Shown piece after piece: positions 18,147 to 49,192 of a DNA stretch of 64,000 bases. The notes under the pieces were generated by a model. It had not been told where the DNA came from. It made no database searches and worked only from the letters and a program-made list of their open reading frames with translations. The position numbers and the translations under genes were made by a program. Source of the DNA: an uncultured bacterium. Lineage in GTDB: Bacteria; Cyanobacteriota; Cyanobacteriia; Phormidesmidales; Phormidesmidaceae. The stretch's first letter is position 1. Every line of letters begins with the position of its first letter. Location of the stretch: positions 8,776 through 72,775 of the forward strand of contig CAWUKV010000003.1 in the NCBI GenBank assembly GCA_963923025.1, read 5' to 3'.

Positions 18147-18308
18147 GATGAGCGGTGGCTTTACATCAGGGGGCGGCATTGGCGGCAATAAGGAACCTGG
18201 AGAAGAGCCCCCAGCCTGGTTTGGATGTCTGTTTATTATCGTTGTGGCAGTGTTTGTGATGACAGTAGTCCTGTGAAGGGCTTGTCCGAGCGGCATACAT
18301 TAAGATAA
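18147..18308 (+). CDS. small hypothetical protein (53 aa, Gly-rich N-terminus, Cys-rich hydrophobic middle), absent from the ORF track
   Basis: AGGAG lies 8 nt upstream of an ATG. The translation is MSGGFTSGGGIGGNKEPGEEPPAWFGCLFIIGCGSVCDDSSPVKGLSERHTLR. Its 3' end runs into repeated-element copy A. Confidence 0.3.
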
Positions 18309-18466
18309 TCACAGCACTATGCCAAAGACTATGCCAAATATCATTGCCTGCCATAGCTGTGACTCTCGCAAGTTTCAATTGCATTGAACTTGCGCCTCGC
18401 TTGACCTGCTGTTCTGCCAAGCTTTTGCCGGAATAGAACAGGTCCAGTCAAGCAAGAAACGCTATG
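18281..18466 (+). repeat. copy A of an unclassified roughly 160-190 nt repeated element with two conserved hairpins
   Basis: Aligns to 32188-32347 over a 5' block (cttgtcc..gcataca..attgcctg), hairpin 1 (GCAAGTTTCAAT-tgc-ATTGAAACTTGC at 18368-18393), hairpin 2 (cgcttgacctg...caggtccagtcaagcaag) and a 3' gaaacgctat. Confidence 0.6.
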
Positions 18467-18501
18467 TTTACCTTAAGTGCCCCTGAATCGGCTGTAGCGG
18501 C

Positions 18502-19182
18502 TCAATAGGGCGGGTCTGCAGGGCCAGTGTATCCACACATGCCGGTGCGGGGCGAGTTCACAATCAGCATGGGCTCACCGTAGTCGTCGTGAGGGTGTGC
18601 TTCGGCATGGCCGTCACATAGCGTCCCCTTAGAATCATCTTCGTAGATACATTCCAAACATAGGTGTGTAGCAGGCTGACCGCATTCGATGCAGCTTGAC
18701 TCGACAGGGTGGTTACGGGCCATCAGGTAGATTGGTTTGGCCGTTAGCGGTTTCCCTTCGCGGATGTCAACGAGCTTAACGAGCGTTTCTGAAGAGGTGC
18801 CAAAGTCGTAGACATGTTCCAGTGCCCCTGTTCGGGAGAAAACGGCATCAATTTTTCGAGTTTTACCAAAGCCGTTTTCGAACTGACCCACCATAAACTG
18901 GCTCATGTGACCGCAGCACTCCAGCCAGATCGCCCTTAGGTAATCGTCTAGGTGACCCAGCGTTTTGGTGCCACGCATTTCTAGGTTCAACCAGTAGTCC
19001 CCGCCGTAGGCATCTTGGATGCGCAGGTGATAGAGCGTTTCGGGCTTTGCTTTGCGGGATTCAGCCTTGGTGATTGCGGCCTGACGAGTTTTACAGCTTT
19101 TGAGATGTTTGGAGACACCGCCCTTAGACAGGGTTTTACCGCAGAAGATACAGTCGCCTTTAGTCTGCTGTTTTCGTGCCAT
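18502..19182 (-). CDS. hypothetical protein, N-terminal C4-type zinc-finger-like plus pRiA4b-ORF3-like domain (tentative)
   Basis: 226 aa ORF with CIFCG...C at the N-terminus, a C..CxxC..H cluster, and LYHLRIQDAYGG...HVYDFGTSSE resembling PF07929. Confidence 0.5.
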   Translation of the reverse strand: MARKQQTKGDCIFCGKTLSKGGVSKHLKSCKTRQAAITKAESRKAKPETLYHLRIQDAYGGDYWLNLEMRGTKTLGHLDDYLRAIWLECCGHMSQFMVGQFENGFGKTRKIDAVFSRTGALEHVYDFGTSSETLVKLVDIREGKPLTAKPIYLMARNHPVESSCIECGQPATHLCLECIYEDDSKGTLCDGHAEAHPHDDYGEPMLIVNSPRTGMCGYTGPADPPY

Positions 19183-19227
19183 AAGCCAAAAGATAACGCG
19201 CCGAAGATCAGCGGTGATGTTGCGTGC

Positions 19228-19770
19228 TTAAGCTCTAGTGTAAGAGACGATCTGCTCCCAAATATCTGGAAACTCAGCCTTGATTGCCTCAGCTTTAGCA
19301 ATTTCCATATCGCGATAGTCGAAGCCAGGGGCTACGGCTTCGCCCAGTAGGCCATATTCGCCAGCTTCTAAAACGGCAGCTTTCCAGTAACCGCCCGGGA
19401 CAAGCAGTTGGGGGACTTCACCCTTGGCTAAGTCAAGCCCCAGAACGTGTCGCTCTAGCTGACCCTCAAGGGTGATCAGCAGATAGGTGATGGGCGATCC
19501 GGCTTGGAAGTAGTGGAGGATGTCAGACTTGTTCTTGTGCAAGTGATCCACCGGTCGGTCATCGGTCAGTAGGTAATAAATGGAGGTGAGGAGGTTGCGA
19601 TCGCACCCCTCCCGCTCGGTTGGCATCGTTTGACTTGTACGGTAGGTTTCGGCAAAGTAGCCCCCCTCGACGTGCTCTACCAGGCCCAACTGCTGAATAA
19701 CTGTCTGTTTATCCACTGTGCTCGACGCTAAATTTTGACGCTGATCTTTGGCACCGATCATACCGACCAA
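19228..19770 (-). CDS. cupin-fold protein (DUF985-like), tentative
   Basis: 180 aa ORF with a beta-rich cupin-like core (HVEGGYFAE...HYFQAGSP). Confidence 0.5.
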   Translation of the reverse strand: MVGMIGAKDQRQNLASSTVDKQTVIQQLGLVEHVEGGYFAETYRTSQTMPTEREGCDRNLLTSIYYLLTDDRPVDHLHKNKSDILHYFQAGSPITYLLITLEGQLERHVLGLDLAKGEVPQLLVPGGYWKAAVLEAGEYGLLGEAVAPGFDYRDMEIAKAEAIKAEFPDIWEQIVSYTRA

Positions 19771-19826
19771 TCATACCGATTTGTGCTGGGAGCAGGCGGC
19801 TGCTATCCGTTAAAACACGCTATAGA

Positions 19827-20375
19827 ATGGGCAGTGACCGAAACAGGCAGGGTATGAGCGAGCAGGACGAGGCTAGGGTTGCCTATGCGGCGGGCCAAGC
19901 CGCCTTTGAACGGGGCAGCTATCGGCAAGCCGTGACGCAGTTTGAGCGAGCTAGGGGGCTCGCGGGTCAAGGAACGATCCTTGGGGGCGAAATCCAGCTA
20001 TGGCTCGCCAATGCCTATGCTGCCGTGGGTGAGGGCAATAACGCAGTCACCGCCTGTCAGGCCTTGGCCCAGCATCCTGACCCTGAAACCCGTAAGCAGG
20101 CCAAGCGGCTGGCCTACATTTTGCAGGCACCAGAACTGGCTACTAAGCCGGAGTGGATGAGCAAGATCCCGGACTTGGGCGGCATTGAGGGCGGCAACGA
20201 CTACAAGCTCACACAGTCTCGCTACGGCCAATCCAACAGCCGACCCATGCGCCGCCTTGCGCCGGAACCAGAGCCGTTGGATTTGAGCCAGGTAAATACA
20301 AAAGACAATCAGTTTGTGTGGGTGGCGCTGCTGGGCTGTGCACTAGTGCTAGGAGGATTGCTGTGGTTCAGTTAA
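19827..20375 (+). CDS. TPR-like protein with C-terminal transmembrane anchor
   Basis: 182 aa ORF with helical TPR-like repeats and a C-terminal hydrophobic helix (FVWVALLGCALVLGGLLWF). It overlaps the next gene by 13 nt. Confidence 0.55.
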   Translation: MGSDRNRQGMSEQDEARVAYAAGQAAFERGSYRQAVTQFERARGLAGQGTILGGEIQLWLANAYAAVGEGNNAVTACQALAQHPDPETRKQAKRLAYILQAPELATKPEWMSKIPDLGGIEGGNDYKLTQSRYGQSNSRPMRRLAPEPEPLDLSQVNTKDNQFVWVALLGCALVLGGLLWFS

Positions 20376-21067
20376 TACGGCATTGGGTCAAGCGTCTGGT
20401 TCTGATTGCGTTAGTGCTGTGCCTGACTGGGTGTGTGGACTACGACCTGGGCATTCAGTTCGATAGTCAGACCCACGGTACCCTCACGCAGACCCTGCAC
20501 CTGAGTGAGCGGGTAGCGCGGTTGAACCCCGACCGAGCCCAGCATTGGCTGCGTCAGTTTGAGCAGCGGGCCAAGCTCCAGGGCGGCAGGGTAAAACGGG
20601 TGGATGCCCGAACGGTGCAGGTTACGGTGCCGTTTAACAACGGGGCAGACCTCAGCGATAGTTACAATTCTCTGTTTGACACCGAAGAGAATCCAGCGCT
20701 GGGCCAGTTGCCCGGTTCGCCGCAGCTCACCTCGCACTTAAACCTGCATCAACAAAACCGAGTCTTGGCACTGCGTAATCAGCTCGATTTAGACATCGAC
20801 CTGACCTCGCTACCCGACCTCAACACGACCCGGCAAGATTGGCGGGTGCTCAATCTTGCCTTTCACCTCGTCACCCCTTGGGGTGTGGTCACCCAGTCTG
20901 GCGGCGTGGGGCGGGGCCGCGAGGTGATATGGCCGCTACAGCCAGGGCAGATCACGCACGTTCAGGCCGAGTTTTGGGTACCCAGCCCGATTGGCATTGG
21001 CGCAGGCGCGATCGCACTGCTGATGGGGCTGGGTTACCTGCTTAAATATGGCTTCGGGAGCCGCTGA
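20363..21067 (+). CDS. lipoprotein, DUF3153-like (tentative)
   Basis: GTG start with AGGAGG 7 nt upstream, a lipobox LCLTGC and a C-terminal transmembrane helix. Its stop overlaps the start of the downstream UPF0182 gene. Confidence 0.55.
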   Translation: MVQLIRHWVKRLVLIALVLCLTGCVDYDLGIQFDSQTHGTLTQTLHLSERVARLNPDRAQHWLRQFEQRAKLQGGRVKRVDARTVQVTVPFNNGADLSDSYNSLFDTEENPALGQLPGSPQLTSHLNLHQQNRVLALRNQLDLDIDLTSLPDLNTTRQDWRVLNLAFHLVTPWGVVTQSGGVGRGREVIWPLQPGQITHVQAEFWVPSPIGIGAGAIALLMGLGYLLKYGFGSR

Positions 21068-21069
21068 GA

Positions 21070-24000
21070 ATGGAAAAAGCGCTGATGCGGGTGAAGGTGA
21101 ACACTTGGCGATGGGTGGTTGCGATCGCGGCGATGCTGCTCAGCGTTGATATTGTCACCTACTTCATGGCCGAGGGGCTGTGGTTTGAGTCCGTGGACTA
21201 CCTGCAAGCCTTTTGGCTGCGGCTGCAAACCCAGTTGGGGCTAGGAGCACTGGGGCTGGCAGGCAGCTTTGGGTTCGCCCTGGTAAATCTGCTGCGGGCG
21301 CGGCGGCTCAGCGTTGACGACAACTGTATCTTGCCCAATGCCAACAATCGACGGACGGGCATTGGTTTGACGGGGCTGTTGCCACTGGCGGTGGGGCTGG
21401 CGGTGCTGATCATGGTGCTGCTGTTGTATCACGGTCAGCTGGCCGTTACCCGCTGGCATACTCAGGATGTTGGGGACGCACTACCGGCGCTGCCGCTGTG
21501 GCTCAACTTTCGGACGGGCTGGCAGGTAACGCAACAGGTGCTGGCGCTGCCGTGGTTAGGAGCAGTGCTGCTAGTGGGAGCGGTGGGTTTCCTGATATAC
21601 CCCATGCTGCTAGGGTATCTCAGCACCGTGGTCATCAGCCTCTGTTTTGGCCTGGTGCTGTCGTCCCAGTGGTCGAGAATTCTGCCCGCGCTCAACCCCA
21701 CCGCGTTTGGCATTGACGACCCACTATTCAACAACGACATTAGCTTTTACATTTTCCGACTGCCCATTCTCGAACTAGTGGAGTTTTGGATTTCCGGACT
21801 GTTGTTGTTTACCCTGGCGCTGGTAACGCTGGTATACCTGCTGGCGGGCAACAGCCTCAGTCAAGGGCGGTTTTTGGGCCTTGCTCCCCCGCAGCGGCGG
21901 CATCTGTTTGGCCTCTCCGGCGGGCTGTTGTTGACAACAGCTCTAGACAACTGGATTGCCCGCTACGAGCTGCTGTATTCGCCTCGGGGGGTAACCTTTG
22001 GAGCCAGCTACACCGATGTTGCCGTATCTCTGCCAGTGAATACGGGCTTGAGCATTCTGGCGCTGGTGCTGGCTGTCATTCTGCTATGGCGGACGCTATT
22101 TTGGGATACCACCTTTCGCGGGCTGGTGGAATGGCTGATGATGATTGGCCGCAACCAGTACGCCTACGTTCCCAAGGTACCGGTACGGCCTCGCAGTTCT
22201 CGACTGCTGATTAGCATTGTGCTGGGCTATTTGGCAGTGAGCGTGCTAGGCGCAACGGTAGTGCCGGGGATTGTGCAGCGGCTGGTAGTACAGCCGAACG
22301 AGCTCGAACGAGAAACGCCCTTCATTGAGAAAACAATTGCGTTTACCCGCCAAGCTTTTAACCTGACGGATGTTCAGGATGAGGTATTCATACCAGAAGA
22401 TTCTCTGACAGCGGCAGACTTGGAGCGCAACAACCTGACAGTCCGCAACATCCGCGTTTGGGACACCCGTCCCCTGCTAGAGAGTAACCGGCAGCTCCAG
22501 CAGATTCGCTCGTACTACGAGTTTGTAGATGCTGATGTCGACCGCTATACCCTGCGCAACGACGACGGCAGTACCGAGCGCCGTCAGGTAATTATTTCAG
22601 CGCGGGAGCTGAATACTGACCGATTAGATGAGATTGCCCAAACTTGGGTGAACCGACATTTGAGCTATACCCACGGCTACGGGTTCACCATGAGCCCAGT
22701 CAATACGGCGGGGGTCGGCGGCCTGCCGACCTACTTCATTAAAGACATTGCCCATGTCCCTAGCAACCCAGCGGTGGCCCGTAGCATTCCGGTAGGGGAG
22801 CCGCGCATCTACTTTGGCGAGCTGACAAACAACTACGTCATGACGTCGACTCGAGTAGAAGAGTTGGACTACCCCAGCGGCAGCGACAATGTGTACACCG
22901 TCTATGACGGGCAGGGCGGCATCAGCATTGGCGACCCCTTTCGGCGGTTGCTGTATGCCAAGCATCTAGGCGACTGGCAAATGCTGTTTACCGACAACTT
23001 TACGCCCGAGACACAGCTGTTGTTTCGGCGCAACATTCAAGACCGAGTGAAGCGGATTGCGCCGTTTCTGCAGTTTGACCAGGATCCCTACCTGGTAATT
23101 GCCAATGTACCCTCTGCCCCCGCCAACGAGCAAAACAAGCTGTATTGGATTGTGGATGCCTATACGACGAGCGATCGCTACCCCTATGCCGACCCAGAGC
23201 AAAACGAGTTCAACTACATCCGCAACTCGGTCAAGGCGGTGGTGAATGCGTACCAGGGGACGGTCGACTTTTACGTAGCCGATGCCGAAGACCCGGTCAT
23301 TCAAACTTGGGCCAGTCTATTTCCCAACATGTTTCAGCCGCTAGCAGACATGCCCACTGAGCTGGCGGCTCACATCCGCTACCCCCAAGACTATTCATTG
23401 GTGCAGTCTAATCAGCTGCTAACGTATCACATGACGGATCCGCGCGTGTTCTATAACCGTGAGGACCAGTGGCGGGCACCCAGCGAAATTTACGCCAACG
23501 AGCAGCAGGTAGTGGAACCCTACTATCTGATTATGAGGCTGCCGGATGCGGACGCTGAGGAGTTCATTCTCTTGCGTCCTTTCACGCCTCGTCAGCGTAA
23601 CAACCTGATTGCTTGGCTGGCGGCTCGTTCAGACGGCGAAAACTATGGGCGCATTTTGCTGTACCGCTTCCCCAAGCAGGAGCTCGTGTTTGGTCCAGAA
23701 CAGATTGAGGCTCGAATTAACCAGGATCCCGAGATTTCGCAGCGGATCTCCCTGTGGGACACCCAGGGCTCACGGGCGAATCAGGGCAATCTACTGGTAA
23801 TTCCCATTGAAGATTCTCTTTTGTACGTGGAGCCGTTATACCTAGAAGCAGAACAAAATCAGCTGCCAACCCTGGCACGAGTTATCGTGGCTTACCAAAA
23901 TAGAATTGCGATGGCAGAAACGCTGGATCAGTCGCTCAGTGCTATCTTTAACCAGCGCAAGTCGAGCAGCCCAGCGATTATTCGCGATCTTGAAAACAGC

Positions 24001-24084
24001 GAGGCTGATACGCCCGACCAAATCGACCAGCTGCTGCTACCGGATGAGCCAGCTCCGTCAAACACCATTGAGCCAAGCGAATAA
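21070..24084 (+). CDS. UPF0182 family membrane protein (paralog 1)
   Basis: 1004 aa ORF with an N-terminal multi-transmembrane region and a large extracytoplasmic domain carrying the conserved YIDAYTTSDRYPY and LLVIPIEDSLLYVEPLYL motifs. Confidence 0.85.
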   Translation: MEKALMRVKVNTWRWVVAIAAMLLSVDIVTYFMAEGLWFESVDYLQAFWLRLQTQLGLGALGLAGSFGFALVNLLRARRLSVDDNCILPNANNRRTGIGLTGLLPLAVGLAVLIMVLLLYHGQLAVTRWHTQDVGDALPALPLWLNFRTGWQVTQQVLALPWLGAVLLVGAVGFLIYPMLLGYLSTVVISLCFGLVLSSQWSRILPALNPTAFGIDDPLFNNDISFYIFRLPILELVEFWISGLLLFTLALVTLVYLLAGNSLSQGRFLGLAPPQRRHLFGLSGGLLLTTALDNWIARYELLYSPRGVTFGASYTDVAVSLPVNTGLSILALVLAVILLWRTLFWDTTFRGLVEWLMMIGRNQYAYVPKVPVRPRSSRLLISIVLGYLAVSVLGATVVPGIVQRLVVQPNELERETPFIEKTIAFTRQAFNLTDVQDEVFIPEDSLTAADLERNNLTVRNIRVWDTRPLLESNRQLQQIRSYYEFVDADVDRYTLRNDDGSTERRQVIISARELNTDRLDEIAQTWVNRHLSYTHGYGFTMSPVNTAGVGGLPTYFIKDIAHVPSNPAVARSIPVGEPRIYFGELTNNYVMTSTRVEELDYPSGSDNVYTVYDGQGGISIGDPFRRLLYAKHLGDWQMLFTDNFTPETQLLFRRNIQDRVKRIAPFLQFDQDPYLVIANVPSAPANEQNKLYWIVDAYTTSDRYPYADPEQNEFNYIRNSVKAVVNAYQGTVDFYVADAEDPVIQTWASLFPNMFQPLADMPTELAAHIRYPQDYSLVQSNQLLTYHMTDPRVFYNREDQWRAPSEIYANEQQVVEPYYLIMRLPDADAEEFILLRPFTPRQRNNLIAWLAARSDGENYGRILLYRFPKQELVFGPEQIEARINQDPEISQRISLWDTQGSRANQGNLLVIPIEDSLLYVEPLYLEAEQNQLPTLARVIVAYQNRIAMAETLDQSLSAIFNQRKSSSPAIIRDLENSEADTPDQIDQLLLPDEPAPSNTIEPSE

Positions 24085-24440
24085 AGGGGCTAGGGATGAG
24101 CCGTACGAATAGTTGTTTTACTGATATTCTGAAAAGCCATGAGCTAGAACAACTCCATATCAATATCAGTCCATCAGGTCTGAGCTCATAGGCTCCAAGC
24201 GGTGGCCTTATTGGTAGGCGCCGCGTTAGTGCAGCAGGGCGATCGCTACAGGGAAGACCCCAGAAGAAAACCCAACGACGAGACGACTCAGTCAAAAATT
24301 GCCGAATACAATGGCAGTATGGCGTACGCCCAAAACAACAGTCAGCTATGGACAGGCTACCAAACCAGCTCATCCCAAGCCGCACGCTCTGCTTGCCAAA
24401 CCACGATTGAGCTCGTCAAGGAGCCCATAAGGAGGAGGAG

Positions 24441-24599
24441 ATGCGTACCGCAAGACACGTAGGGTCACGTGCTGGCCCAAGACCGGTATCCAAAAACACA
24501 AATTTTCCTACACATTTATCTAAAGATGAAGCTATTGAACAAGCCCATTCGCGAGTTCCTAACCCCAAAAACCGCATCGCGTTTAATATTCCATGCTGA
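24441..24599 (+). CDS. small basic ORF (52 aa) translationally coupled to the downstream binding-protein gene
   Basis: AAGGAGGAGGAG lies immediately upstream of the ATG. Its stop overlaps the next start (ccATGcTGA). The translation is MRTARHVGSRAGPRPVSKNTNFPTHLSKDEAIEQAHSRVPNPKNRIAFNIPC. Confidence 0.4.
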   Translation: MRTARHVGSRAGPRPVSKNTNFPTHLSKDEAIEQAHSRVPNPKNRIAFNIPC

Positions 24600-25738
24600 A
24601 AGCGCTTTTATCCCCTCTCACCGCCCCCGACCTACGCCAACTGTCCACCGCGGCCCTGACCCTGGCCGTACTGCTGGGCACCGCCGCCTGCCAAACCCCA
24701 ACCGAGACAGCAGTAGATGCTGAGGCCCCAGCTGAAGCAGTAGCAGATGAGGCTGCCGAAGCACCGGCTGAGCTGACGTCTGTGAACTTCACGCTGTCCT
24801 GGCTATTACAGGGCGTAGACGGGCCGCTAACCCTGGCGATAGACCGGGGCTACTTTGCCGAGGCGGGGTTGGACGTTAGCTTTGAGCGCGGCTTCGGCTC
24901 ATCGGACACCGCTTCGAAGATTGCTGCAGGCCAGTACGACATGGGCTTTGGCGATGTTTATTCCATGATCGAATTCAATCAGCAAAACCCGGATGACAAG
25001 CTGATTGCTGTGGCAGTGACCACCAACCGCGCCCCCTTCGCTTTGCTGGCGTTTGAAGACAGCGGCATCGAATCATTGGACGACATGGCCGGGAAGAAAC
25101 TGGGTGCCCCCGTGGGCGACGCCCCTCGGCGGCTGTGGCCCGTCCTGGCAGAGGAAGCTGGCGTAGACGCCGATGCAGTGGAGTGGGTCAGTATGGAACC
25201 CAAGCTGCGTCAGAGCTTTTTGCTCCAGGGCAACGTCGATGCCATTAGCGGCTTCAGCTATTCCATGATTCCAGCCCTAGTCGAGGCCGGTAAAACCCTC
25301 GACGACATGAACATTTTCTACTATACCGAGAACGGGCTGGACTTCTACGGCAACGTCATTATGGTGAAAGAGTCTTTCCTAGCCGAGAATCCTGAAGTGG
25401 TAGAAGGCTTTTTGGCAGCTTACATCAAAGGCATGCAGGACGCCGTCGCCGACCCCGAAGCTGGCCTAGCCGCAGTTATGGCTGCGGGTGACGAACTGAT
25501 GGACGAGAACGCCGAGCGGCTGAGATTGCAGATTGCGCTCGATGGCCTACTGGTGAACGAAGAAGTGGAAGAGATTGGCTTTGGCGCTGCCGACCCTGAA
25601 CGACTAGAAGCCACCATTGCCCAAACGGTCGAGGGCTTTGACTTACCTGAAACACCGGCAGTGGAAGAGGTCTTTGATGATAGCTATCTACCTGCGTTAG
25701 AAGACCGGCTACCCGGCGAGGTGGGGACTTTAGAGTAA
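24593..25738 (+). CDS. ABC-type transporter periplasmic substrate-binding lipoprotein, NMT1/THI5 (SsuA/TauA/ThiY-like) family
   Basis: 381 aa ORF with signal peptide and lipobox LLGTAAC, and a periplasmic binding fold. No permease or ATPase gene lies adjacent. Confidence 0.75.
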   Translation: MLKALLSPLTAPDLRQLSTAALTLAVLLGTAACQTPTETAVDAEAPAEAVADEAAEAPAELTSVNFTLSWLLQGVDGPLTLAIDRGYFAEAGLDVSFERGFGSSDTASKIAAGQYDMGFGDVYSMIEFNQQNPDDKLIAVAVTTNRAPFALLAFEDSGIESLDDMAGKKLGAPVGDAPRRLWPVLAEEAGVDADAVEWVSMEPKLRQSFLLQGNVDAISGFSYSMIPALVEAGKTLDDMNIFYYTENGLDFYGNVIMVKESFLAENPEVVEGFLAAYIKGMQDAVADPEAGLAAVMAAGDELMDENAERLRLQIALDGLLVNEEVEEIGFGAADPERLEATIAQTVEGFDLPETPAVEEVFDDSYLPALEDRLPGEVGTLE

Positions 25739-25754
25739 GAGGTGCGTAGATCGA

Positions 25755-26753
25755 ATGCTGGTGACCCAACACCCTGTCTTTCGACAGTTTTGGTATCCGG
25801 TAATGCCGCTAGAACGCTTGCGGTCAGGGCCACAGGCGTTTTCTTTGCTGGGTCAGTCACTGGCATTGTGGCTAAACGCAGCAGAGCAGCCGGTAGCCGT
25901 AGAAGACCGCTGCTGTCATCGCTCCGCAAAGCTCTCTAAAGGGGTAGTTAAGGATGGGCATCTCCAGTGCCCGTACCACGGCTGGTGCTTTGCGGGAACA
26001 GGGGCCTGTACTCTGGTCCCGCAATTGGCTGAGCCAGTTATCCCGAAAACCTACCGAGTCAAATCCTTTCGCTGCGACTCGCGTTATGGCTATGCCTGGG
26101 TCTGTCTAGACACGCCCAGGGCAGACATTCCGGCTATTGCAGAAGCAGAGGACCCAGCCTTTCGCTACATTCCTGAGTTTTACGAAATCTGGCAGTGCGC
26201 AGGACTGCGGCTGATGGAAAATTCTTTTGACAATGCCCATCCGCACTTTGTTCACGACAAAACCTTTGGCCTACAGCAGGACCCCATCCCCCCTGCCCCC
26301 GATACGTTTGTTGAGTCGCCATCTGGCTTCACGATGACCTATCGGCTGCCGGTCAAAAATTCTACAGAGCAGCAGCGCAACCTTGGCATGGAGGAGACAC
26401 GCACCGTGCGCATCAGTGAGGGCAAGTGGTACGCCCCCTTTATCAGAACGCTGAAGATCACCTATCCCAACGGGCTCATCCATCTCATTTTCACAGCGGC
26501 TACCCCCATTGATGATGGCTCAATTCAGGTTGTACAGTTTTGCCTGCGCAACGATGGAGAAGCGGATGCCAAAGCCGCAGACATTGTGGCGTTTGACCGG
26601 GCAGTAACCCTAGAGGACAAACTGATTTTAGAAGGAACCGACTCTGACGTGCCGCTGGACATAAAGGCTGAACAGCACATGGTCAGCGACAAACCCGGCA
26701 TTGTTATGCGTCATCGGCTAGCTGCACTCATTCGTGACACAGAGGGTCGCTGA
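25755..26753 (+). CDS. Rieske [2Fe-2S] non-heme iron oxygenase alpha subunit (PAO/VanA-like)
   Basis: Rieske motif CCHRSAKLS...CPYHGW and a mononuclear iron motif ENSFDNAHPHFVHD. Confidence 0.85.
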   Translation: MLVTQHPVFRQFWYPVMPLERLRSGPQAFSLLGQSLALWLNAAEQPVAVEDRCCHRSAKLSKGVVKDGHLQCPYHGWCFAGTGACTLVPQLAEPVIPKTYRVKSFRCDSRYGYAWVCLDTPRADIPAIAEAEDPAFRYIPEFYEIWQCAGLRLMENSFDNAHPHFVHDKTFGLQQDPIPPAPDTFVESPSGFTMTYRLPVKNSTEQQRNLGMEETRTVRISEGKWYAPFIRTLKITYPNGLIHLIFTAATPIDDGSIQVVQFCLRNDGEADAKAADIVAFDRAVTLEDKLILEGTDSDVPLDIKAEQHMVSDKPGIVMRHRLAALIRDTEGR

Positions 26754-26779
26754 TGGTATTCGGCGCGATCGCGATACTA

Positions 26780-27343
26780 TCAGCCCACGACGGACACCTC
26801 AGACCGCTGCCGTTCCGAGTAGGCTTTTAGCCCTTCTAGGTCTTTGATCTGAAGCTCACGGACCCATTTCACAATGCCAAAAAGCTTTGCCGGCACATGG
26901 AACGGGCGGTCGTAGGTGTTGTCGAAATGCAACGTCACTTCTGTCTGCTGATTAGGCAGCGATCGCAGGTCAAAGTCAAGGTAAGGCGTATGCTTCAGCG
27001 GACCACTATCGACCAGGGTCATCGAGACCTTTTGGTTCGGCTCTAGCCCAATAATTTCCTGATGGCCAAAGCGCTTGCCTTCGTCAAAAAAGACCGTGCG
27101 GGCCCCGACAGCACCATCGGCATTCTCAACTGAGCAAGTTGAGCCCGTTGCCTCGGGCCATGCCGACCATGCCATCAATCGATCTTGCCAGCGAATATTG
27201 TTGTACACCTGCTCAACTGGGGCGTTCACAACGATCTTCTCTGAATATTCGACCTTGTTGGGTAGCAAGAAAACCAACACCAAACACGCGCCCAAAAGTA
27301 GGATTGCTCCATTGAGAACAATTGCCATAACTTCTCCATTCAA
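26780..27343 (-). CDS. SRPBCC (polyketide cyclase/START-like) family protein with N-terminal transmembrane anchor
   Basis: 187 aa ORF with a hydrophobic N-terminus and a Bet v1-like fold. Confidence 0.55.
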   Translation of the reverse strand: MNGEVMAIVLNGAILLLGACLVLVFLLPNKVEYSEKIVVNAPVEQVYNNIRWQDRLMAWSAWPEATGSTCSVENADGAVGARTVFFDEGKRFGHQEIIGLEPNQKVSMTLVDSGPLKHTPYLDFDLRSLPNQQTEVTLHFDNTYDRPFHVPAKLFGIVKWVRELQIKDLEGLKAYSERQRSEVSVVG

Positions 27344-27425
27344 GGCTGATGACGACCCGCGTCTATGCCAGTCGCCTGTACAATATAATTAGAACACAAA
27401 GTATCTTGATCATCAAGTTAAAATT

Positions 27426-27875
27426 TTGAGTCATCCTGAAAGTCTAGAATCCATCATTCTTGCAGGGCGAAGAATTCATGCGGCCATTGACGCTGTAGAC
27501 TACGCCATTTCCGAACATCTCGGCATTCATCGCAACGATTTGCGGGCGCTTAACTTGCTAGAGGACGGTCCACTCTCCCCAAAAATGATTGCCGAGCGAG
27601 TTGGGCTAACTAGCGGCTCAGTCACCGCGCTGATTGACCGATTAGAAAAGGCAGGCTTTGTAGAACGCCGACCCTCAAAAACCGATCGCCGTTCGATAGA
27701 AGTTGGTATTGCACCGCATCGTTATGCAGAGATTGGTGCGCTGTATCGCCAGTGTGCCGCAGGGTTGATGAACAAGTTTGGCGACAAAACAGAAGATACG
27801 ATAAAAGCATCGGTAGCGGTGCTCTCAGAGTTTGCTGAGGCGATGGAGCAAGCAGCTGCATCACTAGAGGACTAG
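27426..27875 (+). CDS. MarR family transcriptional regulator
   Basis: Winged-helix segment LSPKMIAERVGLTSGSVTALIDRLEKAGFVERRPSKTDRR. Confidence 0.85.
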   Translation: MSHPESLESIILAGRRIHAAIDAVDYAISEHLGIHRNDLRALNLLEDGPLSPKMIAERVGLTSGSVTALIDRLEKAGFVERRPSKTDRRSIEVGIAPHRYAEIGALYRQCAAGLMNKFGDKTEDTIKASVAVLSEFAEAMEQAAASLED

Positions 27876-27939
27876 CAGCCTGTTAAACAACTGCCCCCAG
27901 CGCCAGCGCCCTGGGGGCAGTTCGGTCAGAGCGCTACAG

Positions 27940-29919
27940 CTATGCCTGAATGACGAAGTTGTCAGCGTCTAAGGTCGGTGCGCCTTCCAGCGTTGCATAC
28001 TGTCCGCCGCTGCCAAAACCTGCTTCCGCACCGTTGGCGTTGTAGTACAGCGTACCGGTATCGGCACCGTAAACAATCAGGGCATCGCTCAGTTCTGCCT
28101 CTTCGGCGCTGTTCACCACCGCAAACTCATCAGCAGATAGCGGCCCACCGACAGCACTGGTGAGCTGAGTAAAGACGGTCAGATCTAGCACAATGCTGTC
28201 AATGTCCTCAAAGTTCTGGATTTGATTGGTGCCGATATCTGCCGCATCAAAGGCAGCACCAGTGTCAAAGCCAAAGAAATCGGCCCCATCGCCGCCAATG
28301 AGAATATCGTTGCCACCACCACCAATCAGTAGGTCGGCCCCGCCGCCGCCAATGAGAATATCGTCGCCGGCACCGCCGATGAGAATGTCGTTACCCGCGC
28401 CACCGTCGGCCACGATTGGGGTTAATGTCGCGCTGGCATTGAGAAAATCATTACCCTCCCCACCAGAAAAAACTACAGACTGAACGTCGCTACCGGTCAG
28501 ATCCTCAACCGTCAGCGAATCATCACCACCCTGGCCGTTAATCTCAAACTGTTCGATCCCTTCGTTAGTGAGGGTAAACAGCCCCAGATTTAGGCGGTCA
28601 AAAATAGCCTGACCGTTCACCTGGCCTAAGTTGAACTCATCCCCAGGGCCGTCAGCGCCGTTGACCTGGGTAACGTCGAACCCGGCACCCCCATCAATGA
28701 AGTCGCTGCCGTCGCCGTTGTTCCAAATAAAGCGGTCGTCACCATCACCCAGGTTGGCAGTATCGCTGCCTCGCTGGCCCACAACAATGTCGTTGCCCGC
28801 CCCAGCAAAGAATGTGTCATCGGCGGAGCTGCCCAGCAGCAGGTCGTCACCATCACCCCCAAAAGCCTCAATCGTTGTCGTGCTTTCTCTGGCATCTAAG
28901 AGGTCATTTCCGTCACCGCCTGAGAAGACCACCTTTTTCACCGCACTGCCGGTCAGATCACCCACCGTCAGTGAATCGTCACCGCCGAGGCCATTGATTT
29001 CAAACCGCTCGACGTTCTCATTCGTCAGGGTAAACGGCCCCAGATTCAGGCGGTTGAAAATGGCCTGACCATTCTCCTGACTCAGGTCAAACTGGTCGCC
29101 AGGGCCGTCAGCCCCGTTGACCTGCGTGGTGTCGTAGCCCTTGCCACCGTCAATAAAGTCGCTGCCGTCACCGTTGTTCCAAACGAAACGATCGCGCCCT
29201 CCACCGAGGCGAGCAGTATCGCTGCCCCGCTGGCCCACAACAATATCGTCACCCGACCCGGCCACAAAAGTATCGTCCGCAGAGCCACCCAGCAGCAGAT
29301 CGTCACCGCTACCGCCCTTGGCTTTAATTTTAGTCGAACTCTCACGGGCATCTAACGTATCGTTGCCGTCGCCACCGGAGAAAACAACCTTCTTTACAGC
29401 GCTGTTGGACAAATCGCCAACCGTCAAAGAATCATCGCCACCCAGGCCATTGATTTCAAACCGTTCGATATTCTGGTTGGTGAGGGTAAACGGCCCCAGA
29501 TTCAGGCGGTTAAAGATGGCCTGTCCATGCGCTTCTCTCAGGTCGAACTGGTCGCCAGGGCCATCAGCACCGTTAACCTGCGTGGTGTCGTAGCCCTTGC
29601 CACCGTCAATAAAGTCGCTACCGTCACCGTTGTTCCAAACAAACCGATCGCGGCCTGCCCCCAGGAAGGCAACGTCGTTTCCTGTCTGACCAACAACGAC
29701 ATCGTTTCCACTACCGGCAAACATAACGTCGGTGCCAGCACCGCCTAAAATCGTATCGTCACCGTCTAAACCGAAGAAAATATCGTCCTGATCACCGCCT
29801 ATTAGCCCGTCATCGCCATTGCTGCCGATGAAAATGTCGCCCAGATCCTCAATCTCAGGCGCGTCATCGAAGATCGAACCGACAATCTGATTAACCAAAA
29901 ACGCTAGAAAAGAATTCAT
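27940..29919 (-). CDS. RTX-type calcium-binding protein with hemolysin-type GGxGxD repeats
   Basis: About 660 aa. The start is at MNSFLAF (29919) with AAGGAG upstream. It carries dozens of GGDGNDxL / GGxGxDxx nonapeptides and three roughly 150 aa internal repeats. Confidence 0.85.
   Translation of the reverse strand: MNSFLAFLVNQIVGSIFDDAPEIEDLGDIFIGSNGDDGLIGGDQDDIFFGLDGDDTILGGAGTDVMFAGSGNDVVVGQTGNDVAFLGAGRDRFVWNNGDGSDFIDGGKGYDTTQVNGADGPGDQFDLREAHGQAIFNRLNLGPFTLTNQNIERFEINGLGGDDSLTVGDLSNSAVKKVVFSGGDGNDTLDARESSTKIKAKGGSGDDLLLGGSADDTFVAGSGDDIVVGQRGSDTARLGGGRDRFVWNNGDGSDFIDGGKGYDTTQVNGADGPGDQFDLSQENGQAIFNRLNLGPFTLTNENVERFEINGLGGDDSLTVGDLTGSAVKKVVFSGGDGNDLLDARESTTTIEAFGGDGDDLLLGSSADDTFFAGAGNDIVVGQRGSDTANLGDGDDRFIWNNGDGSDFIDGGAGFDVTQVNGADGPGDEFNLGQVNGQAIFDRLNLGLFTLTNEGIEQFEINGQGGDDSLTVEDLTGSDVQSVVFSGGEGNDFLNASATLTPIVADGGAGNDILIGGAGDDILIGGGGADLLIGGGGNDILIGGDGADFFGFDTGAAFDAADIGTNQIQNFEDIDSIVLDLTVFTQLTSAVGGPLSADEFAVVNSAEEAELSDALIVYGADTGTLYYNANGAEAGFGSGGQYATLEGAPTLDADNFVIQA
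28290..29660. repeat. roughly 450 bp intragenic tandem repeat, about 3 copies, inside the RTX gene
   Basis: Near-identical DNA blocks occur at a 450 bp period. For example gtcgccagggccgtcagccccgttgacctgcgtggtgtcgtagcccttgccaccgtcaataaagtcgct is seen at about 29095 and again at about 29545. Confidence 0.7.
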
Positions 29920-30473
29920 TTCGGGGGTCTCCTTCAGTGTTAGATGAGAATGATGAGCTTTCTGAAAAAGAATTTGCACGCGAAGCCGTCCTCAACAGAT
30001 AAGCGAGGAATATGGCATTATCTTTAACAGAAGAGAGAGATTTTCTCTTTACTTTTTGTTATGGCAGCAGAACGACACAGGCATTAGATAGTTCGCTATT
30101 GCTACCAGATGACTCTCATAAAGGCTTATAACAAAGCCAACAGAGAAGAATTAAAAGCAAAGCCAGGGAATAACAGAATCGGGCATTCAGACATAGATAC
30201 GAGTCGTTGCCAACATTGGATGTGGCTTTTTCGAGATTTGACAGGTTAGTTGTGGCTGCTTGAGCTAGAGGACGTCAACCGAACCACTGTTTATAACTAG
30301 CGCCATTTACGTTAGGACACCGAGTACAGTGATCCTGCTTGTCATAAAGCGAAATGGCGTCACAGCCTTTTCCTGACGGATCTGACCGCTGCTGTATTTA
30401 CCTGTCTGAATACCAATACGACCGATGCGACCTATTGGATGAGTTTTTTTGATTTTTCCTTGAAGCCCTTGAC

Positions 30474-31265
30474 CTATATGGTTTCTGCAACCACTGGGCC
30501 AGCAGGCTGGTCGGGTAAGTTTACCGATTCAACTGTGACAATCACGTCTTTTACCCAGGGCCGCGATTGGTACACAGGCGGCATCTCTAGGGTGACAAAA
30601 ACGCTGCCGGAACGGGTTTGAAACTCACCACAGGGGATGTACTCACCCTGGTGGCTAACCCACAGGGCGTAGGTTTGGTCGGTAGATAGCGGAGCAAGGT
30701 TTTCAAAGGCGATCGCAGCTTGCAACCCGTCCGTATCGACAATCATGCTGCCAAACGCATCGGCATCCGCATCGGTACCCGCAAAGTCATAAAACCGGGT
30801 GGCAGGCTGCTGCAAAATCAGCTGGGCCTGCTGGGCGGGTGCAGCCGCCAGGAGCGCTTGCCGTAATTGCTGATTTGCCAGTCGTAGGCGATGGTTGTTT
30901 AACCCCAGTACTAGCGATAGCGCTGCCGCACCGACTGCCGCAGCGGCCAGCCCCCAGGTCACCATCGACCGTTGGGGACGTTGCAGCACGGGTGCGGCTT
31001 GGCTGACTGGTTGAGGTGTAGCGGTGTCTAGTTTTGTTAGGATGCGATCGCGCAAATAATCCGGCGGCGTCATCAGCGGTAGCTCGTCGAGCATCAACCC
31101 CACCGTGCTCTCCAGTCGGTTCACCTCTGCCCGCAGCTCCGGACGTTCGACCACCAATCGAGCAAAGTCGTCTGCCTGCTCAGCTGAGAGGTTGCCCGCC
31201 ACATAGTCAGCGGCCAGTTCTTTTAGGTTTCGTTCAGCATCCATAGGGCAGTCGTGGGTCGTCAA
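30474..31265 (-). CDS. anti-sigma factor (RskA-like, membrane-spanning)
   Basis: 263 aa ORF with an N-terminal anti-sigma domain, a central transmembrane helix (WGLAAAAVGAAALSLVLGL) and a C-terminal periplasmic domain. It lies directly downstream of the ECF sigma gene. Confidence 0.75.
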   Translation of the reverse strand: MTTHDCPMDAERNLKELAADYVAGNLSAEQADDFARLVVERPELRAEVNRLESTVGLMLDELPLMTPPDYLRDRILTKLDTATPQPVSQAAPVLQRPQRSMVTWGLAAAAVGAAALSLVLGLNNHRLRLANQQLRQALLAAAPAQQAQLILQQPATRFYDFAGTDADADAFGSMIVDTDGLQAAIAFENLAPLSTDQTYALWVSHQGEYIPCGEFQTRSGSVFVTLEMPPVYQSRPWVKDVIVTVESVNLPDQPAGPVVAETI

Positions 31266-31309
31266 TCACAGGGGTATCTTCAGGGTCGGTTATGAGGGCA
31301 TTGCAACCA

Positions 31310-31909
31310 TTACTCAACGAAATCTTGCAGCAAATCCTTTAGCTTTAGCAGGCCCTGACGCATTCGCGACTTGACCGTCCCTAAAGGAATGTTCGTTTGA
31401 CTAGCTATTTCGGATTGACTGAATCCATGATAGTAGGCCAGCCATAGCAGCTCCCGTTGCTTTTCGGGCAGGGTTTTCAGTGCCTCCCGAACTCGCTGTG
31501 CCCGTTCACCCAGCGTGGCCTGGGCTTCGGGCAACGAAAACGACTCCACCGGGGGAACCAGTCCTTTCAAAATGCGCTGTCGGTTGCTGCGGGTACGGAT
31601 GCGATCAATCGCTCGGTTGCGCGTCACCGTACTCAAAAACCGCGCCAAAGAACCACGGCTGGGGTCATAGGTTTGCTTCTGCCAAAGGTTCAGAAAGACT
31701 TCTTGAGTTAAGTCTTCGGCCTCCGGTCCGCGATTGAGAACCTTGAAGGCAATGGTATAGACCAAGCGTGAGTAGCGATCGTACAAAACCGTCAATGCGG
31801 CCTTATCCCCTCGCCGTAGGGCCAGCACCAACACGTCGTCAGTTGCGTCTTCCCAGTCTGAAACCTGACGTTTTGACCCTTCAGAAGGCATAGGCTCAGA
31901 ACCCATCAA
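31310..31909 (-). CDS. ECF (sigma-70 group 4) RNA polymerase sigma factor
   Basis: Sigma region 2 (LTQEVFLNLWQ) and region 4 helix-turn-helix (YHGFSQSEIASQTNIPLGTVKSRM). Confidence 0.85.
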   Translation of the reverse strand: MMGSEPMPSEGSKRQVSDWEDATDDVLVLALRRGDKAALTVLYDRYSRLVYTIAFKVLNRGPEAEDLTQEVFLNLWQKQTYDPSRGSLARFLSTVTRNRAIDRIRTRSNRQRILKGLVPPVESFSLPEAQATLGERAQRVREALKTLPEKQRELLWLAYYHGFSQSEIASQTNIPLGTVKSRMRQGLLKLKDLLQDFVE

Positions 31910-31998
31910 GGGGTCGTTCGTGTGAATCTATACAGCGTGGATACTGAAAACTATCTCATTTAGGCAGGGTGCGATCCTAGCAAGTTGAGAAACTTTAC

Positions 31999-32022
31999 GG
32001 GGGGGGCAAGGGGCAAGGGGGG
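31999..32022 (+). other. G-rich tract (G8-caa-G4-caa-G6) with G-quadruplex potential
   Basis: ggggggggcaaggggcaagggggg seen directly between the ECF sigma promoter region and repeat copy B. Confidence 0.4.
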
Positions 32023-32187
32023 ATTGGTTGGCCGCTAGTCTAGCGGTTGCCGCCTTGGCTTGCTCTTGATGAAACAGTTGACTTTTTAGATAGGGAAAAT
32101 TGTTGTGCGGTTGGGAGTATGGGATAACGCAAATTTAGTGTCCTGGGTTAGCACGTGGAGAAAGGAACAAGTAGACGTGTTAGGCGA

Positions 32188-32347
32188 CTTGTCCACGCTT
32201 AGCATACAAAAATTGCCTGTAACAAAGCGTATGGGCTGGGTATGTATAGCAAGTTTCAATTGCATTGAAACTTACGCCTCGCTTGACCTGCTGTGCTGTC
32301 AAGCTTCTATCGATCAAGAATGAGTCAAGTCAAGCGAGAAACGCTAT
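32188..32347 (+). repeat. copy B of the repeated two-hairpin element
   Basis: Hairpin 1 at 32249-32275. Hairpin 2 is a perfect 10 bp stem, CTCGCTTGAC ... GTCAAGCGAG, at 32278-32338. The terminal gaaacgctat lies at 32337-32346. Confidence 0.6.
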
Positions 32348-32628
32348 ACATGGCCGATTATGAGTAGATAGCCTTAAGTATTTGACGGCATGTCATTCCG
32401 TTCGCTTTAGCGGCTCCTTTGGAGCAACGGAGTCGAGGAATCTCTCGATGTATAACGCTTTCGCCGAGATGCTTCGACAAGCTCAGCATGACACTAGTGC
32501 ATCGTCAAAGCTTAATTTTAGGGTAGACGGAAGCGAGCTTACACCTGGCATCTTCGACTTTTATAGTGGACCCCAAAAACTGGACAGGTAGCTAAGCTCT
32601 GAATCACTCGGAAAAATGGGAGTCATTC

Positions 32629-32946
32629 ATGAGCAGAAAACGGAAACACTACAGCGCTCAGTTCAAGGCAAAAGTAGCCCTTGAAGCGGTTCGCGGAGAA
32701 AAGACATCAGCTGAATTAGCCAGTGCGTATGAAATCCATCCAACGCTGATCAATGGCTGGAAACGTCAGCTGCTGGAGGATGCCAGCGCACTGTTTGACG
32801 GCGGGACATCAGCCAGTAAAGTCGAGTCAGACACTGAGGCTCAGATTGCCGAGCTGTATCGCCAGATTGGTCAACTGACGGTCGAGCGTGATTTTTTAGC
32901 CAAGCGGTGCGCACAATCGGGACTGCCGAGCGCAAGGCCTTGGTAG
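32629..32946 (+). CDS. IS3-family transposase OrfA (helix-turn-helix plus leucine zipper)
   Basis: MSRKRKHYSAQFKAKVALEAVRGEKTSAELASAYEIHPTLINGWKRQ is the classic IS3/IS150 OrfA. Confidence 0.85.
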   Translation: MSRKRKHYSAQFKAKVALEAVRGEKTSAELASAYEIHPTLINGWKRQLLEDASALFDGGTSASKVESDTEAQIAELYRQIGQLTVERDFLAKRCAQSGLPSARPW

Positions 32947-33177
32947 ATGAGCAGCATCCGAGTTTGAGTCTGGTACGTCAGTGTCAACTGCTGGGTATCA
33001 GCCGTTCGAGTCTTTACTATAGCAGCCGCCAGATCCGTTAGGACAAGGCTGCGACAACCTATAGCTCTACGCCTAGCTCTACGCCTAGCGGGACTGCCGT
33101 ACTCGATGTCCTAAGCGATATGGCGCTAGCTATACCAGAGTGTCGGCCCGCCAGCTGAGGAGCTGACATTACTGCGG

Positions 33178-33870
33178 TTGATCGATGAGCAGTATCTGCA
33201 AACGCCGTTCTACGGCAGCAGGCGGATGATGGTGCATTTGCGTCAACTGGGCTATTCGGTGAATCGTAAGCGGGTGCAGCGTTTGATGCGTCAGCTGGGC
33301 TTACAAGCGGTCTATCCCAAGCCTAAGCTGAGCCAGCCCCATCCCGGACACAAGGTGTATCCCTACCTGCTGCGTGGGGTTGAGATTACGAGCGTCAATC
33401 AAGTCTGGAGTACTGATATCACCTATCTGCCAGTGCTAAAGGGCCATTTCTATCTCGTTGCTGTGATGGACTGGTTTAGTCGAAAGGTGCTGAGCTGGCG
33501 GATTTCAAACACGATGGACGGTCAGTTTTGTGTGGCGGCTTTGGAGGAAGCCTTAAACACATTTGCCAAGCCAGCGATCTTTAACTCTGACCACGGGGCT
33601 CAGTTTACGGCCAATGCTTTTACGGACTGTCTAAGGCAAGCAGGCATTGAGATCAGCATGGATGGCCGAGGCCGCTGTCATGACAACATCTTTATCGAGC
33701 GGTTGTGGCGGTCGGTGAAATGGGAGTTGATCTATCTCAAGACGTTTGATGATGGACGGCAGTTGTCCCGTGAGGTGTCGGACTGGTTTCACTGGTACAA
33801 CCGCCAGAGACTGCATCAGTCACTCAATTATCGGACACCGGATGAAATTTATTTTGAGGGAGGTGGATAA
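33178..33870 (+). pseudogene. IS3-family transposase OrfB (DDE integrase core); its N-terminal linker to orfA is disrupted
   Basis: The rve-domain sequence (DITYLPV...FNSDHGAQF...ERLWRSVKWE) is intact. Stops and a perfect 12 bp tandem duplication (agctctacgcct x2 at 33063-33086) lie between orfA and orfB in place of the usual -1 frameshift overlap. Confidence 0.7.
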
Positions 33871-33970
33871 ATATGATTTGAGCTGTGATACGCTTTGGAG
33901 CAAGAACAGATTTTGTTGTCCTTTCAGAGCTTAATTGCACTGCAAAACTGTCCAAGCTTTGGGGTCCACT

Positions 33971-35083
33971 TCAGATGTCATCGTATCGGGTCTCAAATGC
34001 CTTGAGTTGGTCAATGTCTAAGGCCTCCTCACCCTTGTCTTTGGCTTGATTGACCTGATGGAGTATGGTCACCAACAGCACGCTCATCTGATAGGCCCAC
34101 CATTGCTGATGATGCTCTAGGACAAACTGCAATTCCCTCAGGTGATGGGCATTACAGAGGAAATAAGCACAATCATAGCCGCTGTAGCTCTGCCAGCCAT
34201 CATGAACGGCCTTACCCGAGAACACGGGCAGTATGCCCATCTCGTCCATCGCCAAGCGGCCCCGTTTGGTATGGACAAAGTAGTAGGTCAACCCATCAGT
34301 GCAGGCCACATGCAGCCAAAACAGTTGGCCGTTGACCCGCATCCCCGTTTCGTCAAAGTGAACCAGGCTCGCGTTCGCCAACTGCGATTGAACGCGCTGC
34401 TCGACCAAGGCCAACTGCTCGAAGCAGTGCTTGCGGCTGTTATACAGCGTCCCTTCTGAGACCGTTGCCCCAAACAGGTCCTTCAGGACCTCAGTGGTGC
34501 GAGCTGAGGGCAGCAGTTGAGCCTCCATCAGGTACAGCATCACTCCTCTCAAGCGCGGACCATACTGCACCACGGTCGTTGCAGTGGCGGGAAAGCTTGC
34601 TTGGTTCTGATGACCACAGTGACGACAACACTTCACGCTAGCGCGATGTTCCGTCACCAGTGGCTCTATCGGCTCAATGTCAACCACCTGACGGGCTATC
34701 CACTCTTCAACCGCCTCGGCGGCTAGTGAACCACCGCACTGCTGACAATAATTCTCCTCGTGATATTCCACCCAATCAGCTTGCGACTGCCACTCTAACG
34801 TCTGGCCTTGATGACCCGGTTGTCCCCCTGACGACTTGCCACTCTTTCCCCGCAGGCTTTTCGTCCGCTTCTTAAACCCATCACCTGATGGCGGCTTGTG
34901 GCTGTTGCGACTCGTCTTTTTCTCTCGGCCTTCCAGCTTATCTAGACGCGCTTCTAGACTATCGAGACGCTTGAGTTCCTTAAGGAGCTGTTGCACCAAC
35001 GACACGACCGCTTCCTCGCCCTCTTGGTAGATGGCTCGGATCTCTGCTTCGCTCAGCTCAATTCGCTTCGGCGGTTTACTCAA
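33971..35083 (-). pseudogene. IS66-family transposase TnpC, C-terminally truncated (370 aa of about 520)
   Basis: Motifs KPPSGDGFKKR, a zinc finger CQQCGG...CRHCGH, HFDETG and NAHHLRELQ. The ORF ends 3 bp from the IS3 right end, and no tnpA or tnpB is present. Confidence 0.75.
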
Positions 35084-48666: not shown

Positions 48667-49192
48667 CCCTTACAAACTGCTCAGCCACGGCTGCGCTGAT
48701 GTTCATTTCGATCTGTGCCAAGCAGAATTGCCATACTCGGTGTCATAGCGTAAATGGCGCTAGCTACAGACAGACGTTACTGAGCTTTTGATAGACCACT
48801 TCACCTTGAACCTCTGCTAATTTATTTAGTGGAGGTTTAATAGTATTTTTATAAAATCCTTCCGGAGCATATTTGAGAATGTATTAAGACGCAAAAGTGC
48901 AGCATTTCAGCACCGAATCCGCAGTTTCCCCCAAGCGGTTTAATCAGCCGATACCTAGATTGGGGAAGGACACATGATGTATAGCCCCCTTGTCTATTGA
49001 GGCCCCAGAATCAAGCCTATTCAAGGGGTTACGGGAAAAGGACACTCACTTTTTTGTAACTTCAAGGAGTGAGCAAGATTCTCTGAAGGCGTTTGTATCG
49101 AGCCTTTCACATCCGAAAGATACCGCTACGCTGTTGGAGTGGTAGGCATCTTGGCTAGTGTTCGTTTCTGCTGAAATCTAGAACTCTTATAA

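Follow-up and report, generated by a model that had tools for sequence, protein, structure and literature searches.

Bacterial transposable elements of the miniature inverted-repeat type (MITEs) that insert at TA are the closest described systems to the element reported here. They include the Correia elements of Neisseria and the Nezha, or IS630-associated, elements of cyanobacteria. Correia elements begin with TATAG and finish with CTATA. Members of this group are around 100 bp long and non-coding; they carry terminal inverted repeats and TA flanks, have conserved ends and a variable centre, and lie mostly between genes, occasionally inside genes or other mobile elements. Stable folding into hairpins is a further common trait (PMC10969869). 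The present study concerns a non-coding unit of about 100 nt that occurs twice in a 64,000-nt stretch of DNA, the window, from an uncultured cyanobacterium of the family Phormidesmidaceae (GenBank assembly GCA_963923025.1, contig CAWUKV010000003.1, positions 8,776 to 72,775). All the features just listed are shared by this unit, which is probably a new, low-copy, MITE-like non-autonomous transposon represented in the window by two independent insertions, copy A and copy B. The likeness is one of features; sequence similarity to Correia or Nezha elements was neither detected nor directly compared. The unit departs from these elements in that its perfect terminal repeat is 4 bp long, the longer 18-bp repeat being split on the left by an extra 21 nt that give rise to a separate hairpin of 12 bp. 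It is apparently present in a handful of copies per genome, as against tens to hundreds, and no partner insertion sequence (IS) has been identified.

The locus was first described, in a prediction made from the letters alone (the original prediction), as a non-coding repeat with two hairpins that belongs to no curated RNA family. This part stands. The accompanying views, that the repeat is not a MITE and that its two copies bracket a 14 kb accessory patch, do not.

Boundaries of the element and its two copies in the window

The two copies are direct-orientation homologues (18368-18465 and 32249-32347) with 81-84% identity, as found by BLAST and by a gapless repeat finder. A 25-mer and a 19-mer core are confined to copies A and B in the window (chance expectation 0), and the covariance model R1, run with filters off, gives exactly two matches in the 64 kb. 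BLAST, repeat finder and covariance model thus all bear out the pair of homologues proposed at the outset. The additional 5' block that had been included in the homology (18281-18365 against 32188-32246) fares differently. It scores 16, compared with 12.6 +/- 2.1 for shuffled sequences, a value reached in 52 of 500 shuffles; this is not significant, so the true homology extends over only about 100 nt. The features of the two copies are as follows.

32247-32346, plus strand: copy B, the intact 100-nt element TAGCAAG...GAAACGCTA (122 bits with R1)
32245-32246, no strand: TA on the left of copy B, putative target-site duplication (sequence, flank table)
32347-32348, no strand: TA on the right of copy B, putative target-site duplication (sequence, flank table)
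32249-32275, plus strand: hairpin 1 of copy B, a 12-bp stem, mismatched once (C.A) at the base, and a TGC loop (folding)
32278-32338, plus strand: hairpin 2 of copy B, with arms CTCGCTTGAC (32278-32287) and GTCAAGCGAG (32329-32338) and a variable centre between them
18366-18464, plus strand: copy A, a decayed 99-nt copy (118.7 bits with R1)

Copy B looks intact; copy A is a decaying relic. From GCAAG to GCTA, copy B spans 98 nt, equal to every complete copy found elsewhere. The corresponding length in copy A is 97 nt, its left terminus is TCGC in place of TAGC, and TG replaces TA at its right flank. Just as first described, copy A has lost 1 nt from hairpin 1 and bears a mismatch (C.A) in hairpin 2. 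In a second assembly of the same strain, copy A carries an extra T>A substitution at 18391, within hairpin 1, and a further change between two assemblies of one strain fits a decaying copy. The unit has no coding capacity: as had been noted from the start, a 1-nt indel between the window copies destroys any common reading frame. Both blocks are best explained as separate insertions of a non-coding, MITE-like unit of about 100 nt, fairly ordinary in kind and narrower than first described.

Copy A was also said to overlap a small open reading frame (ORF), which in fact ends at 18276, upstream of the start of the conserved core at 18366. In the ENA assembly, this 42-codon ORF (18148-18276, plus strand) has a gene call (L096 10907-11035); the predicted product has a glycine-rich N-terminus and a hydrophobic C-terminus. 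The proximity of copy B to an IS3 end is real, the distance from the end of copy B to the left inverted repeat of the IS3 (32556) being 208 bp.

Terminal repeats, insertion sites and dispersal

Multiple alignments and a table of flanking sequences give the boundary pattern TA/TAGCAAG...GAAACGCTA/TA, slashes marking the ends of the element. The termini TAGC and GCTA are perfect. Beyond them, the 18 nt at the right end (GTCAAGCGAGAAACGCTA), when reverse-complemented, match left nucleotides 1-4, 7-11 and 33-41 exactly, so that the left terminal repeat is interrupted by AA (2 nt) and by a 21-nt segment, an arrangement atypical for a MITE. The 21-nt segment and the adjoining repeat bases pair as hairpin 1, which in copy B sits within this interruption. 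Hairpin 2 is formed by the inner portions of the terminal repeats, pairing across a freely varying centre. A MITE had originally been excluded on the grounds that terminal inverted repeats were lacking; the TAGC/GCTA ends, the interrupted 18-bp repeat and the TA flanks overturn this objection. Over all copies, TA is present at five of seven left flanks and eight of nine right flanks, and the inferred targets are T-rich. Conservation peaks at both ends and is lowest in the centre. Conserved ends and a variable centre are the usual pattern for a non-autonomous transposon.

Beyond the window, the element is known from two marine cyanobacterial genomes and one metagenome, with identities of 82-92%. 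For genomes, a species-representative collection was scanned with one exact 18-mer, which returned 89 loci, only three of them confirmed by BLAST. The search among cyanobacterial genomes that the original prediction had recommended thus finds the whole unit at three loci of two marine metagenome-assembled genomes (MAGs): L006 and L062 from "Cyanobacteria bacterium J06648_16" and L005 from J06627_28. A metagenome scan with a single 20-mer yielded four contigs, all from sample ERZ1740067, which holds at least four copies: L090, L092, a 5'-truncated L091 and an end-truncated L093. A diverged variant of about 205 nt is also present on contig L093 (786-989, minus strand); both of its ends are recognizable, and its centre is about 100 nt longer. 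This suggests either that size variants occur or that the long form is an intermediate towards a longer parent element. The total is nine copies or fragments and one long variant across four genomes or metagenomes. Viral contigs and a plasmid collection gave chance matches or none. The carriers are a small group of marine filamentous-type cyanobacteria, with the element at low copy number.

Homology stops at the same 100 nt or so across all pairs, and the flanks are unrelated. Between GCAAG and GCTA inclusive, the seven complete copies are all 98 nt long (copy A, 97 nt) in spite of 8-19% substitution divergence. The neighbouring genes vary from locus to locus: glyoxalase and a 226-aa protein, ECF sigma factor and IS3, fatty-acid desaturase and DinB, SDR and an aminoacyl-tRNA synthetase, Wzy and flippase, and a CheW-like gene. 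Orientation and distance relative to these genes are likewise inconsistent. A separate 106-nt unit is shared by two of the metagenome contigs (L090 133-238 and L093 1043-1145; 75% identity), ends in ...GAGGTTTA and has no Rfam match. It abuts the element in L090 and lies 54 nt from the long variant in L093; it may represent a further repeat or a site at which landing is favoured.

One metagenomic copy interrupts a gene. In L092, the unit lies within a decayed gene whose reading frame meets a stop inside the element, and tblastn finds intact, multi-copy homologues of this gene on Acaryochloris plasmids. The Acaryochloris protein WP_012167171.1 reads ...TPRASSLVENLNSRLRNYFFLRRTLG...QYFLNH..., and the L092 sequence ...TPRASSMVENLNSRLRNY runs directly into the element. 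Removal of 102 nt (963-1064, the element and one TA) brings ...SRLRNY in frame with FLLR. The joined product reads NYFLLR, compared with NYFFLR in WP_012167171.1, and FLNH then follows after a 16-nt deletion. By this sequence comparison, one case with a short junction match, L092 places the insertion at a TA and would set the length of the element at 100 nt. The interrupted gene and its Acaryochloris homologues were considered as transposases; their similarity to IS256 and ISL3 is below threshold and no confident call was made.

MITE traits, taken as summarized in the review PMC10969869, are found here in the length of 100 nt, the lack of coding capacity, the terminal inverted repeats, the short direct repeat at the flanks, the dispersal in unrelated contexts and the occasional insertion into genes or mobile elements. 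By the mechanism proposed for the unit, a transposase encoded elsewhere would bind the conserved ends, and the unit would insert at TA in T-rich sequence, the TA being duplicated. The partner would most likely be of the IS630/Tc1-mariner type, as suggested by the TA target together with terminal inverted repeats, on established knowledge of that superfamily. An autonomous parent would begin with TAGCAAGTTTC or TAGCGTTTCTCGCTTGAC and finish with GTCAAGCGAGAAACGCTA.

Several observations weigh against assigning the unit to this class. (i) L092 is the sole case of an interrupted gene, and its junction match comprises four residues. (ii) No empty site at the DNA level was found among relatives traced via flanking proteins. 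The window strain is otherwise present only as a second assembly 99.9% identical to the first, the next relatives of the flanking protein are 78% and 71% identical and without synteny, and all five assemblies that include the L062 locus of J06648_16 have the element there. (iii) The check for target duplications found TA flanks, in which a duplication is inseparable from a TA-specific target combined with a TA borne by the element. (iv) A perfect terminal repeat extends over no more than 4 bp, the 18-bp repeat being obtained with two gaps. (v) Copy number, as judged from the single 18-mer scan, is apparently very low for a MITE. (vi) Searches of the window, the fetched loci, the plasmid collection and the viral contigs turned up no partner transposase whose ends match; in a Pfam scan of essentially all large ORFs of the window, the only transposases are those of the IS3 and of an IS66 fragment, the ends of which are unrelated to the element. 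(vii) Three compensatory changes in hairpin 1, described below, are unexpected for a site read as double-stranded DNA. Many accepted MITEs likewise have no known partner.

Hairpin structure and competing explanations

Both hairpins of the original prediction are present in both window copies. Hairpin 1 is GCAAGTTTCAAT/tgc/ATTGAAACTT(A/G)C and hairpin 2 is CTCGCTTGAC...GTCAAGC(G/A)AG. The unit folds into structures more stable than those of dinucleotide shuffles, whichever strand is considered (z from -3.3 to -5.7). The middle of hairpin 2, already described as not conserved, is the least conserved part of the element.

Covariation had been proposed as a check on both stems, and the outcome is divided: it is seen in hairpin 1, to a modest degree, and is missing from hairpin 2. 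Compensatory double changes affect two stem positions of hairpin 1 in three copies. One pair, U-A, becomes A-U in L006 and G-C in L005, and the neighbouring pair becomes G-C in L092; hairpin 1 of L062 resembles a half-changed intermediate. The number of doubly changed cells is reached in 25 of 500 shuffles and the covariation score in 6 of 500, and slid controls score far lower. These values rest on seven sequences, and the figures of the pair count obtained with a first helix-1 register, which was off by one, are to be ignored for that helix. The 10-bp stem of hairpin 2 is invariant in six of the seven complete copies and hence uninformative on structure. Covariation is not seen in hairpin 2, whose inner pairs break freely. 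G.U and C.A mismatches are about equally frequent, so that neither strand is favoured. The covariation of hairpin 1 may result from selection for a folded strand, or from template-switch repair in a quasi-palindrome, the latter being our own suggestion. A maintained hairpin inside the left terminal repeat is the only unusual point of the element.

The main rival to a MITE-like transposon is a hairpin-dependent element mobilized as single-stranded DNA, either a PATE derived from IS200/IS605 or a REPIN-like unit, with a Y1/HUH transposase as its mover; we consider this unlikely. Such a unit would insert 3' of a T(T/G)TA-type tetranucleotide with no target duplication, and the hairpins would be its left-end and right-end recognition structures. 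The two subterminal hairpins agree with this, as does the pairing of hairpin 1, kept via three compensatory double substitutions as expected if structure and not sequence is read. PATEs and REPINs are also small, non-autonomous, hairpin-based units that show compensatory pairing and have a conserved tetranucleotide at the left flank. The present element may have such a tetranucleotide too; its left flanks read TTTA in four of six copies, ATTA in one and TGTA in one. The L092 junction fits equally well an insertion without duplication of an element that has a terminal TA of its own. The left-end and right-end hairpins of IS200/IS605 elements resemble each other, and the family has no terminal inverted repeat. 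In the present element, by contrast, the hairpins GCAAGTTTCAAT and CTCGCTTGAC are unrelated in sequence, hairpin 1 begins just 2 nt from the left end, and the 18-bp terminal inverted repeat is clear though interrupted. The guide rule also fails, for the GCGC located 5' of hairpin 2 cannot pair with the putative cleavage site TATA. A GTAG-type REP motif is lacking, and neither a Y1 transposase nor TnpB was detected in the window.

A related question is whether hairpin 1 is functionally read as a folded single strand, in which case the unit would not be a passive DDE-type MITE. This is quite unlikely. The hairpin may then be the recognition structure of an undescribed hairpin-dependent mobilization system in marine cyanobacteria, or the unit may be a mobile structured-RNA module that alters the fate of host transcripts at its landing site. 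Both the strictly constant length and the three compensatory double changes would be explained if the strand were read in folded form.

It is very unlikely that the unit is a structured non-coding RNA, either a small RNA or a cis-acting messenger RNA element such as a 3'-untranslated region (3'-UTR) stabilizer or processing site, with the copies as paralogues. The stability of the folds on both strands relative to shuffles, the hairpin 1 covariation score and the length held strictly constant through 8-19% divergence are all compatible with an RNA. At least three copies (copy A, L006 and L062) lie between convergent genes, the position of a 3'-UTR element, and the L090 unit is just 3' of a minus-strand gene. 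Other loci do not conform: L005 is antisense within an operon, L092 lies in a pseudogene and copy B is upstream of a divergent sigma gene. Mismatches show no strand preference, hairpin 2 lacks covariation with interior pairs that break freely, and the TA/TAGC...GCTA/TA boundaries and the split L092 gene are features of a transposon. The original prediction could place the element in no known family, and the Rfam search it called for gave nothing meaningful: at the gathering score, the whole window has no match, and at E<=10 the two copies have matches at chance level only (the Avashort thermometer, with 15.7 bits where the threshold is 88, mir-236 and archaeal RNase P) and L090-L093 none. Promoter and terminator scans found nothing inside the element, and neither signal is conserved inside or adjoining it. 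The lack of an Rfam match and of a conserved promoter or terminator, together with the inconsistent contexts, makes a free-standing RNA gene unlikely. Yfr2-5 and other cyanobacterial motifs in Rfam resemble the element in being short, structured, multi-copy and intergenic. The element differs from them in these same respects of Rfam matching (E<=10) and transcription signals, in having no consistent strand relation to its neighbours and in its transposon-like boundaries.

More specific identities were examined and rejected. A hammerhead-type three-way junction, sought by eye, fails on junction strands GCGC and AAAC without CUGAUGA and on a misfit in the register of stem III and the cleavage site. 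A retron msr/msd is not supported at any locus, no reverse transcriptase being present; downstream are a convergent 226-aa gene (copy A) and the IS3 (copy B). For attC and att sites, no integrase is nearby and the contexts are inconsistent.

The interval between the copies and neighbouring mobile elements

The 14 kb between the copies is ordinary chromosome and not cargo. GC content in the interval (18.5-32.2 kb) is 0.51-0.59, the same as outside. Its genes encode the conserved 226-aa protein, which has more than 3000 homologues, Cupin_5, DUF3153, UPF0182, an NMT1-type binding protein, a Rieske oxygenase, AHSA1/SRPBCC, MarR, an RTX-type protein and an ECF sigma/anti-sigma pair. No less ordinary genes lie on either side of it, among them those for NAD biosynthesis, UbiA, UvrC, RlmN, Dus, arginine decarboxylase, LpxA and FabZ. 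The Pfam scan detected no integrase or transposase in the interval, and the window contains no tRNA gene. The accessory patch of the original prediction is thus indistinguishable from its flanks in GC and gene content.

That the copies nevertheless act as the boundaries of a mobile unit of 14 kb (a composite transposon, or an integrated island with attL and attR) is extremely improbable: their direct orientation at a distance of 13.9 kb, the mildly unexpected closeness of two copies of a low-copy family and the IS3 and IS66 remnants adjoining copy B speak for it, and are set against a copy B flanked by its own TA on both sides and hence inserted alone, a degenerate outer (left) terminus of copy A, an interval of uniform GC without integrase, transposase or tRNA, genes that are alike housekeeping-like inside and outside, and the single occurrence of the element elsewhere. 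The TA on each of its own sides marks copy B as an independent insertion, in keeping with two separate arrivals of a MITE-like unit.

A neighbouring mobile element is the following.

32556-33979, plus strand: IS3-family insertion sequence, with inverted repeats at 32556-32587 and 33948-33979; orfA is HTH_Tnp_1 and orfB is rve

This IS3 is not part of the element, and the ends of the two are unrelated. A truncated IS66-family transposase gene (33971-35083, minus strand; DUF6444, zf-IS66 and partial DDE_Tnp_IS66) abuts its right end, and with the repeats at 32.2-33.1 kb this fragment makes up a small cluster of debris from mobile elements. A strongly self-complementary unit of about 110 nt (32385-32500), present once in the window, lies between copy B and the IS3, with two inverted arms (TGTCATTCCG...GGAATCTCTCG and CGAGATGCTTCGACAAGCTCAGCATGACA) and a DNA fold of z = -3.1. 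It may be another small palindromic repeat element. A third repeat family is found at 30282-30356 (minus strand), 33078-33132 (plus strand) and 48704-48778 (plus strand), with 75-80% identity. The 33.1 kb member is located within the IS3 between orfA (32629-32946) and orfB (33178-33870), where the orfB frame is broken by stops, and has the boundaries TA/TAGC...GCTA/TA, as does the present element. The two may have a partner transposase in common, or this member may be an IS3 relic. Elsewhere in the window, two paralogous genes for UPF0182-family membrane proteins (21070-24084, plus strand, and 50712-53582, minus strand) have patches of 71-81% nucleotide identity.

The analysis removes a false lead, for neither a 14 kb island nor a new RNA class is demonstrated. 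In their place is a previously uncatalogued family of small mobile elements, for which a consensus, a covariance model and exact boundaries are now available. This resource should aid the annotation of marine Leptolyngbya-like cyanobacteria by avoiding the calling of spurious small ORFs over the element, copies of which are overlapped by a 37-aa gene and an 84-aa ORF. The element is also usable as an insertion marker between strains. The hairpin kept inside one terminal repeat is a minor curiosity with regard to how such elements are recognized.

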